Below, in pieces: positions 36,277-41,125 of a stretch of 64,000 nucleotides of DNA. Location of the stretch: the NCBI GenBank assembly GCA_047602405.1, contig JASGHJ010000002.1:2560001-2624000 (forward strand), given 5' to 3'. Under the pieces are notes generated by a model. That model was given only the letters and a program-made list of their open reading frames with translations, was not told where the DNA came from and ran no database searches. Within the stretch, counting starts at the first letter, position 1. Every line of letters starts with the position of its first letter. A program made the translations under genes and the position numbers. Origin of the DNA: Anaeromyxobacteraceae bacterium. GTDB lineage: Bacteria > Myxococcota > Myxococcia > Myxococcales > Anaeromyxobacteraceae.

Positions 36277-36555
36277 ATGGCGCGCATGGTCCAGTGCAAG
36301 AAGCTCGGCAAGGAACTGCCGGGTCTCGGCTTCAAGCCCTTCCCGAACGAGCTCGGCCAGAAGATCTACGACTCGGTCTCCGCGGAGGCGTGGAAGCTCT
36401 GGCTCGAGCACTTCAAGATGATCCTGAACGAGTATCGCCTCGCCCCGGGTGACCCGCGGACGCAGGAGATCCTCTACCAGCAGGCCGAGCAGTTCTTCTT
36501 CGGCGAGGGCGCCCAGCTCCCGCCCGACTACAAGCCGCCCAGGGCGAAGGGCTAG
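36277..36555 (+). CDS. yggX: Fe(II)-trafficking / oxidative damage protection protein
   Basis: [10 protein letters not shown]...GL...PFP.ELGQKIY..VS.EAW..W...MILNEYRL. Confidence 0.9.
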
Positions 36556-36607: not shown

Positions 36608-38011
36608 GTGCGCGGCCCCGGCGAGATCCTCCTCCTCTCCACCTACGAGCTCGGGCACGCCCCGCACGGCATCGCCGTGCCGATGGCGTTCCTCGAGCGC
36701 GCCGGCTTCCGCCCCGCCGCGCTCGACCTCGCCGTGGAGCAGCTCGATCCCGCGCGCGCGGGGCGGGCGCGCCTCGCGCTCGTCTCCATCCCCATGCACA
36801 CGGCGACGCGCCTGGGCCTCGAGGCCGCCGCCCGCCTGCGCGCGCTCGCGCCCGGGATCGCCATCGCGTTTCACGGGCTCTACGCCGCGCTGAACGCCGA
36901 CCTCCTCCTGCGCGCGGGGGCGGTGGCGGTGGTCGGCCCCGACCAGGAGGACGCGCTCGTTGCGCTCGCGGAGGCGCTCGAGCGCGGCGCGCCGCCGCCG
37001 GCCACCCGGCCCGCACCCGGCACGCGCCCGCGCCGCCTCGAGCTCCCCGTCCCGAGCCGCTGGGGGCTGCCCCCGCCGGACCGCTACGCCCGCCTCCTCG
37101 CCGCCGACGGCGACCGGCTCGCGGGCTACACCGAGGCGACGCGCGGCTGCAAGCACCGCTGCCGCCACTGCCCCCTGCCCCCGTTCCACGACGGCCGCTT
37201 CACCGCCGTCCCCGCCGACGTCGTGGTCGCCGACGTGGCGCAGCAGGTCGCCGCCGGCGTCCGCCACGTCACCTTCGGTGATCCCGACTTCCTGAACGGC
37301 CCGGGGCACGCCCTGCGGATCGCGCGGGCGCTCCACGCACGCTGGCCGGGCCTGACCTTCGACTTCACCGCGAAGGTCGAGCACCTCGTCGCCCGCCCCG
37401 AGGACGTCGGGGAGCTCGCCCGGCTCGGCGCGCTGTTCGTGACCTCGGCGGTCGAGTCCTTCTCCGGCGAGGTCCTCGCCCGCCTCGCGAAGGGCCACGA
37501 CCGCGAGGGCGCCCTGCGCGCGTTCCGGGTGTGCGAGGACGCCGGGCTCGCGCTCAGGCCGACGTTCGTGCCGTTCACGCCCTGGGAGACGCTCGCGTCG
37601 TACCTCGACCTCCTCGAGACGCTCGAGCGGCACGGCTGGCTCTCGCACGTCGACCCGGTGCAGCTCTCCCTGCGCCTGCTCGTGCCGCCGGGCTCGCTCC
37701 TCGAGGGTGACCCCTCCATCCCCTTCGACGCCCTCGACGACGACGCGCTGGGCTGGCGCTGGCACCACCCGGACCCGCGCATGGACGCCCTGCAGGCGCG
37801 GGTCGCCGCCGAGGTGCACGCCGGCGAGGCGGCCCACGCGCCGCCGCGGGAGATCCTGGAGCGGGTGCACGCCCTCGCCGCCGCCGCGGCGGGCGCGCCG
37901 CACCAGCACCGCCGCATGCTCTCGCCCGAGGCGCGGCGGGTGCCGCGGCTCAGCGAGAGCTGGTTCTGTTGAGCGGAGCCCCTGCGCCCGGCGGGCGCGG
38001 ACGAGCGGTAG
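36608..38011 (+). CDS. CUAEP-tail radical SAM protein, probable selenoprotein (UGA at 37970-37972)
   Basis: B12-binding-like N-terminus, CKHRCRHC motif, TFGDPDF. The tail reads SESWFC-TGA-AEPLRPAGADER-TAG, with a hairpin just downstream of the UGA. Confidence 0.85.
37973..38002 (+). promoter_or_regulatory. Putative bacterial SECIS element
   Basis: CTGCGCCC-GGC-GGGCGCGG stem-loop. The apical loop starts with G about 18 nt after the UGA. Confidence 0.6.
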
Positions 38012-38042
38012 AGGGCCGTCGGAAAGGCGATAGAGTGCGCCC

Positions 38043-38960
38043 ATGGCGCCCTTCGCCGCCCGCCCCGCCCCGGCCGCCGTGCTGCCGCGCATCGCCCCGC
38101 CGCCGCGCGCCCCGCCGCCGCGCGCCGTGCCCTGGTCGCTCCGCGCCCGCCTGTGGTTCGGCGGGTTCGGGAGCTTCGGCTGGCTCTGGCTCGCGTTCTC
38201 GATCGCGTTCACCGCCCCCTTCCTCCGCGCCACTGACGTCTCGCGCTTCACCACCTTCAGGGGCGAGCTGGTCCGGGAGCAGGGGCTCACCTCGAGCTGC
38301 ACCGGGACCGGCTACTCGGTCGGCGGCAGCGAGGGCCAGAACGGCACCCCGGTGCACGCGAACCACTACCGGTTCGAGTCGAACGGCGCCGAGTACCACG
38401 GGGTCTCCTACGCCACCGGCCGCTGCCTCCTCGCCGGGACCGACGTCACCGTCGAGTTCCCCGCCGGGCACCCGGAGCGGTCGCGCATCGCCGGCATGCG
38501 GACGCGCCCGCTCGACGCGACCGGACTCCTCGTGCTGATCTTCCCGGCCTTCGGGATCCTCTCCGTGGTGGTCGCGTTCTTCGTCGGCCAGCGCCGCACC
38601 GGCCTCCTCTCGCGCGGGCGGCTCGCGCTCGGGACGCTCCTCGGGAAGGAGCCCACCCGCACGAAGATCAACGGGCGCACGGTGATGAAGCTCCGGTTCG
38701 CGCTCGAGACCGACCGCGGCACGCGCCACGAGATCGTGGTGAAGACCACCGAGCCCGAGGTGCTCGAGGACGACCCGAAGGAGCGGATCTTCTACGACCC
38801 GGACCGCCCCTCCCGCGCCGTCGCGTGGGACTCACTCCCGGGCAGCCCCGCGCTCGACGCCGCGGGCGAGCTCATGCCCGCCCCGGCCTGGCCGGCGCTC
38901 CGGGTGCTCATCGGACCCGCGCTCACGGGCGCCGCGCTCCTCGGGGCCCTCCTGTGGTGA
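38043..38960 (+). CDS. Membrane protein, DUF3592-like (paralog 1)
   Basis: TM, ANHYRFE, VTVEFPAGHPERSRIAG, TM, LEDDPKE..FYDP. Confidence 0.7.
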   Translation: MAPFAARPAPAAVLPRIAPPPRAPPPRAVPWSLRARLWFGGFGSFGWLWLAFSIAFTAPFLRATDVSRFTTFRGELVREQGLTSSCTGTGYSVGGSEGQNGTPVHANHYRFESNGAEYHGVSYATGRCLLAGTDVTVEFPAGHPERSRIAGMRTRPLDATGLLVLIFPAFGILSVVVAFFVGQRRTGLLSRGRLALGTLLGKEPTRTKINGRTVMKLRFALETDRGTRHEIVVKTTEPEVLEDDPKERIFYDPDRPSRAVAWDSLPGSPALDAAGELMPAPAWPALRVLIGPALTGAALLGALLW

Positions 38961-39850
38961 CCGGCTCCGACGGCTTCCTCCCGCGCCTCGCGCCGCCCCC
39001 GCGCCGCGTGCCGCTCTCCTGGCGCCTGCGGCTCCTCTTCGGCGGCCCCGCGCTCTTCGCCTGGCTCTGGCTCGCGTTCGCGGGCGGGCTGGGCACCGTC
39101 TTCCTCGCGCAGGCCGATCTCGTCTCGTGGGTCCACTTCCTCGGGAAGGTCGAGCGCACGGAGGGGACGTCCGACGGCTGCGAGGCCACGCAGGCGTCCT
39201 CCAACAAGCAGCGCATCTACGCGAACCACTACCGCTTCGAGGTGCCGGATCTCCGCGTGGAGGCGGGCGGCGCCGGCCCCGCGGAGCTCACCGGCACCTC
39301 CTACGGCCGCTGCGCCGAGGCCGGCTCGGCGGTGACCGTGGAGTGGCCCGCCGGCCACCCCGAGCGCTCGCGGATCGCCGGCCAGGACCGGGCCACCTTC
39401 GGCCCGGAGGTGGCGTTCGTCGCGATCTTCCCGCTGGTGGGCCTCCTGTTCGTGGCCGCCACCCTCGTCGCCGGCCTGCGCCAGCTCGCGCTGCTCGAGC
39501 ACGGCAAGCTCACGCTCGGGACGCTCCTCTCGAAGGAGCTCGCCGCGCGCGGCGGCAAGGGGCCGCCGGTCTGGGCCTGCCGCTTCGCGCTCGAGACCGA
39601 GCGCGGCAAGGCGGAGATCACCGTGCGGACGACGAGGCCGCAGCGGCTCGAGGACGACCCGCGCGAGAAGTTCTTCTACGACCCCCGCCGCGCCGATCGT
39701 GCGGTCGCGTGGGACGACCTCGACCCGAAGCCCCGCGTGGACGGGCTCGGCGCGTTCGAGCCGCTCGGGCCGGGCGCGACGCTCCTCGCGCTCCTCGGCC
39801 CGCTCCTCGCGGGCGCGGCGATCGTGGCGGTCGTGAAGCTCCTCGGCTAG
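38957..39850 (+). CDS. Membrane protein, DUF3592-like (paralog 2)
   Basis: GTGA overlap. Shares ANHYRFE, PAGHPERSRIAG, FALET and LEDDP.E..FYDP with the upstream gene. Confidence 0.7.
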   Translation: MTGSDGFLPRLAPPPRRVPLSWRLRLLFGGPALFAWLWLAFAGGLGTVFLAQADLVSWVHFLGKVERTEGTSDGCEATQASSNKQRIYANHYRFEVPDLRVEAGGAGPAELTGTSYGRCAEAGSAVTVEWPAGHPERSRIAGQDRATFGPEVAFVAIFPLVGLLFVAATLVAGLRQLALLEHGKLTLGTLLSKELAARGGKGPPVWACRFALETERGKAEITVRTTRPQRLEDDPREKFFYDPRRADRAVAWDDLDPKPRVDGLGAFEPLGPGATLLALLGPLLAGAAIVAVVKLLG

Positions 39851-41125
39851 CGCCCGGACGCGACCGGCAGCGGCGCGCGGAGGTCGAACGCGAGGCGCGC
39901 GTGCGCGGCCCGCAGCGCGGCCTCGACGTCGGCGGGCGTCTCGCCCTTCGCGAACAGGAAGCCGAGGTAGCTGTCGCCCTCGGGCAAGGGCACGATCTCG
40001 CGCCCCTCGGGGGCGGTGATCACGACGTCCACCACGCCCGGCACCGCCCGCGCGGCCTCGAGGCCCGCGACGCCGTGGAGCACGCCGCGCCGCGGGATGG
40101 GCAGCATCATCACGCCCGAGGCCCGCGCCTCGCGCCGCACGTCGGCGAGCGGGATCCCCATGGCGTGCGCGACGAGCACCTCCTCGAGCGTGAGGCCCGC
40201 CCCGAACTTCAGCGTGCGCGAGCAGAGCCCGCCGATCGAGCGGGCGGCGATCTCGAGGATCACCGGCCCCGCCGGCGAGAGCCGGAGCTCCGCGTGGACC
40301 GGCCCCTCGCCGAGCCCGAGCGCGCGGCAGCCCTCGCCGACGAGCCGCGCGACCTCGGCCTGCAGCGCCGCCGGGTGGCGCGACGGCGTGACGTACAGGG
40401 TCTCCTCGAAGTAGGGGCCATCGAGCGGGTCGGGCTTGTCGAAGAACGCGAGCACCTCCAGCGCGCCCGCGACGAGGAGCCCCTCCAGCGCGACCTCCGC
40501 CCCGGGGACGAACCCCTCCACGAGGAGCCGGGCGCCCTCCCCTTCCTCCCGGGCGCGGCGCTCGAGCTTCGTGTCGTGGAGCAGCTTCTGGATCCGGCGC
40601 CACGCGGCGACGAACGCCGCCGGGTCGTCGGCCCGGATGACGCCCCGGCTCGCCGAGAAGATGAGCGGCTTCAGCACGACCGGGAACCGGACGCCGCGGG
40701 CGACGGCCTGCGGATCCTCATGCACGGCGTGGTCCTCGAAGGGCGGCACCGGCAGCCCGGCGTCGCGCAGGGCGCGGCGCTGGGCGAGCTTGTTGCCGGC
40801 CTTGCGGGCCGCGGCCGCGGCGCTGCCCGGGAGGCCCAGGCGCTCGGCGGCGAGCGCACCGATGACCGCGGTCGCGTCGGAGGTCGGGACGATGCCCGCG
40901 ATCGGCCGGCGCGCGGCGGCCTCGGCGATCTGCTCCGCGGCGTGCTCGGGCTTGCGGTAGTCGAGCGAGAGCAGGTCGGGGAGCTCGCCGAACGTGTCCT
41001 CGATTCTGGTGGCAGAGGTCGCTGCCGAGGAGGAGCGGGACCTTCAGCCGGCGGGCCGCGGCCTGGAAGTCGTCGAGCCGGTAGCTCGTGGTCGGGACGA
41101 GGAGGAGGAGCGAGCCGTCGCGCAT
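39847..41125 (-). CDS. ATP-grasp domain protein (apparent +1 frameshift at 41004-41005)
   Basis: The N-terminus VPTTSYR..DF joins ...NKLAQR..L, FPVVLKP...SASRGV, LVEGFVPG.E and HAELR..EIAAR when one base is removed (426 codons). Confidence 0.85.

Follow-up and report, generated by a model that had tools for sequence, protein, structure and literature searches.

The locus described here raises two questions: whether the TGA at 37970-37972 terminates a radical SAM gene or encodes selenocysteine (Sec) within it, and what a Cys-Sec pair on the tail of such an enzyme may be used for. The gene is located on the plus strand at 36608..38011 of the window, by which we mean the whole stretch of 64,000 nucleotides that was analyzed. 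Its frame starts at GTG 36608, passes through PRLSESWFC to the TGA, continues with GCG GAG CCC (A-E-P), and after nine further codons reaches TAG 38009-38011, which confirmed all of the coordinates that a preliminary description of this DNA had given for a frame running past the TGA. When the UGA is read as Sec, the readthrough product consists of 467 aa with Sec at U455. It contains a CxxxCxxC [4Fe-4S] motif at 181-188 (C181/C185/C188; 37148..37171, plus strand), which is invariant in 70 aligned members of its family, and it matches PF04055 of Pfam with 51.6 bits. The motif Cys454-UGA (Sec455)-Ala-Glu-Pro, which is defined by the sequence and by homologous tails, occupies 37967..37981 on the same strand. 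The preliminary description also held that gene callers truncate the protein, and 119 of its 120 nearest database proteins indeed end at WxC. A correction of the gene call restores 13 residues, which are the most conserved part of the protein, and the same truncation error is carried by those 119 database entries.

Reading of the UGA codon

Homologous loci were taken from 41 related genomes, 24 of which were over the family cut-off, and from 80 loci of a species-genome collection. The tail motif was observed in 102 of the 118 gathered loci; the 16 loci without it comprised 13 that do not belong to the family and three family loci in which the motif was unmatched or cut off. After the removal of duplicates and with the window included, 95 distinct tails were obtained, 81 with TGA and 14 with TGC or TGT, and the residues following this codon were AEP in 87 and SEP in eight (in these counts, as in those of hairpins and gene co-occurrence given below, kin are not independent). 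The preliminary description had proposed that the C-termini of homologs be examined for CCAEP, and a Cys codon was present in these 14 of the 95 tails, with AEP or SEP after the codon in all 95. It had also proposed a search of the genome for Sec genes: selA, selB, and selD are present, all over their cut-offs, together with tRNA-Sec, and the selD of this genome itself has an in-frame TGA. Neither homologs ending at WFC without AEP nor a genome without Sec machinery, the two results that it had named as contrary to Sec, were encountered. Regarding the distribution of the machinery, selA was found in 33 of 36 genomes with the TGA form and in 5 of 14 with the Cys form, a count that covers 50 of the 80 loci in incomplete assemblies, includes kin that are not independent, and contains one unpublished genome (G061).

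The UGA is followed by a SECIS-type hairpin, CTGCGCCC-GGC-GGGCGCGG, at 37982..38000 (plus strand). This hairpin is present in the minimum-energy fold, with an 8-bp stem, a 3-nt loop, and an energy of -13.9 kcal/mol. The distance from the UGA to the GGC loop is 17 nt and the first loop base is G, which is the SECIS-type geometry that the preliminary description had recognized in a G-first apical loop placed approximately 18 nt past the UGA. The consensus model of the bacterial SECIS, as given in PMC13188914, has its loop 16-37 nt downstream and a G within the first two loop positions; the hairpin of the window satisfies all four constraints of the model, and its spacing of 17 nt falls at the short end of the allowed range. 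An Rfam scan of 37850-38150 identified no SECIS family, and its three chance matches were far below the gathering score. Folding z-scores of regions of 42-78 nt (+0.15 to +0.53) were no better than those of shuffles and were set aside as uninformative for the hairpin; the 26-nt hairpin piece had a z-score of -1.8, with 10 of 200 shuffles being as good. A hairpin of equal strength arose in 74 of 2000 tails that had been recoded synonymously and was also present at 32 of 2000 TGAs sampled at random in the genome. Taken alone, the hairpin is weak-to-modest evidence in DNA with a GC content of 74%, and it is the comparative data, namely, the interchange of TGA and Cys with a conserved AEP and the covariation of the stem, that make the support for Sec decisive.

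A hairpin test was passed by 79 of the 81 TGA tails and by 1 of the 14 Cys tails and, in a second set of 80 further metagenome loci from which one spurious row was dropped, by 43 of 56 TGA tails and 2 of 9 Cys tails. Since this test is loose (865 of 2000 TGAs drawn at random from the genome also pass it) and since some of the Cys forms are from lower-GC genomes, covariation is the stronger evidence. Across 37 TGA tails picked for diversity, 83% of the stem cells pair and 54 cells show a two-sided compensatory change; none of 500 shuffles was as high, and every slid register was lower.

Judging from these sequence comparisons, it is very likely that the UGA codes for Sec, inserted via SelB reading the hairpin, and the interchange of TGA and Cys, the covarying hairpin, and the Sec machinery all agree with the Cys-Sec pair that had been suggested for the tail. 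That the UGA is a genuine stop in this organism, with a protein ending at WFC, appears highly improbable. Two peculiarities of the window would fit a stop: the loop is located 19-20 nt after the UGA in 71 of the 81 TGA members and the hairpin of the window is one codon nearer, and the tail Gln, which is kept in 88 of the 95 tails, is lost in the window protein. However, a spacing of 17 nt is inside the published model (PMC13188914) and is matched by another candidate gene in the same genome, the other TGA/Cys candidates of which have their loop at 17-21 nt in 6 of the 9 listed. The close relative G010 keeps the TGA, the AEP, and the same short spacing despite changes in the stem, and the conservation of AEP or SEP past the codon, the occurrence of Cys in its place, and the complete Sec machinery of the genome also argue against a stop.

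Further in-frame TGA/Cys candidates with hairpins lie elsewhere in this genome (G000), at C1:235315, C1:1570133, C2:707865, C2:776837, C2:3601568, and C2:525753; judging by their motifs, they include peroxiredoxin-like and formate-dehydrogenase-like genes. In a Planctomycetota member (L114:5971-5988), the tail reads WF-TGA-TGA-AEP with a good hairpin. This is a possible Sec-Sec pair, and as a single record it could also be a sequencing error.

Family membership and relation to ArsL

In a search of the NCBIfam profiles, the protein matched NF040546 (CUAEP/CCAEP-tail radical SAM (seleno)protein) over its full length with 611.5 bits against a cut-off of 500, and the closest named proteins are Anaeromyxobacter members with 68-92% identity. 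Together with the CU-AEP tail, the CxxxCxxC motif, and the radical SAM fold, this result upheld the family assignment of the preliminary description. The gene is an ordinary member of an already curated, uncharacterized selenoprotein family; the call was correct, and the family is not new. Haft and Gwadz (10.1101/2022.07.06.499078) mention the CUAEP/CCAEP family once, as uncharacterized, and a literature search outside subscription journals turned up no work that treats its function or connects it with ArsL. A divergent branch, one member of which is named Ferrimicrobium, ends in WFCCAAP (P0351, P0358, P0366, P0370, and P0382).

The second-ranked NCBIfam family was ArsL, NF040542 (E 1.5e-70), the match to which had 238.5 bits and was below the cut-off of 450; all families other than these two had E values of at least 2.7e-7. 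By the criteria of NF040542 itself, the protein is not an ArsL. Over 405 aa, it is 33% identical to a named ArsL of Burkholderia. In a joint alignment of 70 CUAEP/CCAEP members and 38 ArsL homologs, conservation reaches at least 85% in each of the two families at 109 positions, with the same residue at 70 and different residues at 39, and the vicinal CC of ArsL lines up with CU; 119 of 120 ArsL homologs end in KRCCLKC. A quick tree with 57 CUAEP-family, 19 ArsL, and 9 outgroup rows placed the CUAEP family and ArsL on one branch (SH-aLRT 99). Since this was only a quick tree with nine long-branched outgroup rows, the designation of ArsL as the nearest family rests mainly on the HMM ranks. A plasmid collection yielded 37 matches, consisting of one CUAEP-family member and 36 ArsL-type genes. 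In the fusion protein P0368, GNAT and ArsM-like methyltransferase domains precede an ArsL-type part, which would unite a complete predicted arsinothricin-type set in a single chain.

ArsL converts SAM to methylthioadenosine and an aminocarboxypropyl species, which is joined to As(III) bound to its tail (10.1101/2024.02.01.577332). In another source (10.64898/2026.04.29.721666), the binding of arsenic by three cysteines is supported, single Cys-to-Ala changes are cited as losing activity, and among radical SAM enzymes of the standard fold, ArsL alone is said to make an aminocarboxypropyl species. According to a review (PMC13598754), an 'MCCA' tail variant of ArsL is most active on methylarsenate, and our own reading of this name is that the variant retains only two Cys. 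The preliminary description had left the role of the tail at metal, Fe-S, or sulfur/selenium; by analogy with ArsL, the nearest characterized relative, which has an As(III)-binding tail, this range can be narrowed, and the CUAEP enzyme probably works like ArsL. The residues behind the unusual cleavage in ArsL are not known, as stated in 10.64898/2026.04.29.721666, and a shared SAM chemistry is consequently unreadable from the sequence. On the strength of the analogy, we consider it reasonably probable that SAM is cleaved in the manner of ArsL to methylthioadenosine and an aminocarboxypropyl species.

The predicted structure has a pLDDT of 92.8 overall and approximately 80 for the tail block 451-460. 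In a fold search with this model, the nearest solved structure was AprD4 (TM 0.70), followed by MiaB and TsrM, and no structure of ArsL or of the NF040546 family was found; a sequence search of the PDB returned AprD4 as the sole match (E 1e-5). These neighbors of the modeled fold, and an N-terminal domain that resembles a B12-binding fold (PF02310, E 7e-6), would suit a canonical 5'-deoxyadenosyl-radical enzyme, possibly assisted by cobalamin, which acts on a small molecule or protein and employs the Cys-Sec pair in redox or substrate binding. Nearly all radical SAM enzymes are canonical, according to 10.64898/2026.04.29.721666. Nevertheless, the PF02310 score of 26.2 bits is under the cut-off of 32.1, ArsL has the same N-terminal domain and works without reported cobalamin, and the CUAEP family and ArsL share replacements in the SAM barrel, e.g., F-x-P-W at 323-326 versus G-x-P/D-G/A, that are absent from an outgroup as small as three proteins. 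We regard a canonical enzyme as unlikely and retain cleavage of the ArsL type in what follows.

Neighboring genes and the possible acceptor

The co-occurring partner of the radical SAM gene is an L-amino-acid-ligase-type ATP-grasp gene at 39847..41125 (minus strand), which was assigned to the L-amino acid ligases by Pfam and a fold search. Among 151 genomes of the phylum, an ortholog of this ligase is present in 17 of the 17 that bear the CUAEP family and in none of the 134 others, four of which have weaker ATP-grasp paralogs (<190 bits). Among the 41 relatives, the four Anaeromyxobacter genomes without the CUAEP family are also without the ligase. Of 80 loci, 45 contain the ATP-grasp ligase gene, and the ligase is present in 46 of the 50 distant genomes that were tested. 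Ligases of this family share an invariant Cys in IGGLCS (alignment A2; C293 in L093), located just after the catalytic Glu/Arg loop, and ArsL-linked ligases are without this Cys. Since the ligases beside ArsL genes are only approximately 25% identical to that of the window, they need not be its orthologs. In the window, the gene is split into two frames by one extra base near 41004, which is absent from G010 and, in three of four runs, from related contigs (the related contig of the fourth run does not cover 41004), and is most likely an assembly error. P0366, a single database record of the WFCCAAP branch, fuses the ligase and the radical SAM protein. The RCCLKC-tail (ArsL-family) clusters of Priestia and Alicyclobacillus (L121:1480-2703 and L122:1433-2665) also carry an L-amino-acid-ligase-type ATP-grasp gene, together with a gene of the carboxymuconolactone decarboxylase family; the combination hints at peptides of arsinothricin.

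Two tandem paralogous membrane-protein genes are sited between the radical SAM gene and the ligase gene (38043..39850, plus strand). They are approximately 70% alike in DNA, belong to no clear family, with a weak match to PF12158 of Pfam that is below the cut-off, and are also present in G010; they do not recur at distant loci and are outside the conserved set. A promoter scan of the window locus found none, and terminator-like matches were judged to be due to chance.

On the other side of the radical SAM gene, 52 nt upstream, is yggX (Fe(II)-trafficking / oxidative damage protection protein; 36277..36555, plus strand), which matches NF003817 with 125 bits against a cut-off of 74 and also matches PF04362. 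It adjoins the radical SAM gene in 17 of the 17 family-bearing genomes of the phylum. In the first set of 80 loci, an Nfu-domain gene was found in 27 and yggX in 24, never both together, and yggX was present in 40 of the 80 loci of the second (metagenome) set; DUF169 was found in nine and a CDGSH protein in five of 80 loci. No Nfu-domain gene was found in this genome. YggX was rejected as a dedicated partner because it is present in 72 of the 151 genomes of the phylum, 55 of which are without the CUAEP family.

Nfu assists in the turnover of lipoyl synthase. In a comparable manner, the tail of the CUAEP enzyme might hold sulfur or selenium, as a persulfide/selenide or a sacrificial Fe-S cluster, for insertion into a product by ArsL-like or ordinary radical chemistry, with Nfu or YggX rebuilding the consumed part as in lipoyl synthase. 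The counts of Nfu and yggX in both sets would be consistent with such insertion, as would the two loci that lie within a suf-type run, two others that lie beside selD, and the Nfu genes that stay beside the ligase where the radical SAM gene is apart from it; the methylthiotransferase MiaB is also among the nearest solved folds of the predicted model. On the other hand, a pair of ligands is a small number for a cluster, the tail of ArsL was shown to hold no extra cluster (10.1101/2024.02.01.577332), yggX is general in the phylum, and the ordinary supply of clusters accounts equally well for these neighbors. The insertion of sulfur or selenium accordingly appears rather improbable, and we return to a metalloid held by the tail.

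Regarding arsenic, ArsR, Acr3/ArsB, ArsC, and ArsP were all missing from the neighbor clusters scanned with Pfam (150 of 390 and 90 of 199), as was a formyltransferase partner. A tblastn search with ars proteins gave nothing but weak methyltransferase matches in the first set of loci and no matches in the second, and the acr3 of this genome sits on the other contig. What speaks most against arsenic is the lack of ars genes among the neighbors scanned, along with a tail that has only two ligands. The acceptor of the same transfer could be a different heavy element that is likewise soft, for instance mercury or antimony: Haft and Gwadz (10.1101/2022.07.06.499078) tie CU motifs of the HgcA, SaoL, and MerT types to heavy-metal binding, and in P0248, a CCAEP radical SAM protein is joined in one chain to a MerB domain (organomercury lyase; PF03243, E 1e-14). 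However, P0248 rests on one record, alone in its cluster, and may be an artifact of read-through, its MerB part matched none of the loci, and the same Pfam scans (150 of 390 and 90 of 199 neighbor clusters) found no mer genes. The link to MerB was rejected, and we consider another heavy element to be a decidedly unlikely acceptor.

Proposed reaction and comparison with known systems

The gene very likely encodes a radical SAM selenoprotein of 467 residues whose C-terminal tail bears a Cys-Sec pair, and we propose that this enzyme works like ArsL. SelB would read the hairpin and Sec would be inserted at the UGA; SAM would be cut at the gamma-carbon in the ArsL way to give methylthioadenosine and an aminocarboxypropyl species; and SAM's 3-amino-3-carboxypropyl group would be transferred to a soft metalloid in the trivalent state, arsenic being the likeliest, which Cys454-Sec455 would hold. 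This acceptor may be As(III) or methylarsenite, and a two-ligand tail would suit an acceptor on which an OH or methyl group is retained. The ligase would then couple the amino acid so formed with a second one, yielding a peptide, and YggX or an Nfu protein would supply or repair the [4Fe-4S] cluster.

Certainty falls in the order of Sec insertion, ArsL-type cleavage, metalloid acceptor, ligation, and cluster upkeep by YggX or Nfu. As(III) or methylarsenite as the acceptor would take about half of the remainder. The whole chain, in which aminocarboxypropyl transfer to a metalloid held by Cys-Sec is followed by peptide ligation, is plausible without being probable; more tentative still is a three-part pathway, consisting of the Cys-Sec radical SAM enzyme, a dedicated ligase, and an Fe-S helper, that makes an organo-metalloid peptide independently of ars operons. 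Considering its single-copy presence in most of the genus and in many phyla, the function looks more like housekeeping than antibiotic synthesis.

If these proposals are true, a pathway spread over many bacterial phyla would produce an as yet undiscovered amino acid of the organo-arsenic or another organo-metalloid type, capped as a peptide, a selenoenzyme would forge carbon-metalloid bonds, and there would be a second, much larger family of non-canonical radical SAM enzymes that transfer the aminocarboxypropyl group. As a widespread sister of ArsL that combines a Cys-Sec tail with an obligate ligase, the CUAEP family offers a test of whether ArsL chemistry is general, and it could bring to light a new metabolite of arsenic, selenium, or sulfur in bacteria of soils and sediments.

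In comparison with NF040546, the window protein has the TGA at the Sec position and the CU-AEP tail, whereas its hairpin is one codon nearer the UGA than in a typical member, the usual tail Gln is absent, and its locus has two membrane genes inserted before the ligase. AprD4 and the cobalamin-type radical SAM folds (MiaB, TsrM, and OxsB) are at most 20% identical to the window protein, and the Cys-Sec tail is a feature of the latter that is absent from those enzymes. With ArsL, the window protein shares a two-domain layout, approximately 30-33% identity from end to end, and barrel motifs; it differs in that its WFCUAEP tail has two soft ligands and the RCCLKC tail of ArsL three cysteines, in the approximately 55 extra residues that precede the tail in the CUAEP family, and in the Sec of its tail. 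ArsL loci lie in ars neighborhoods (arsM, arsQ, arsR, arsN; PMC8552651), whereas CUAEP loci have Fe/Fe-S helper genes as neighbors and no ars gene among the neighbors scanned; the two types of loci are nevertheless alike in that an L-amino-acid-ligase-type ATP-grasp gene sometimes adjoins ArsL genes as well.
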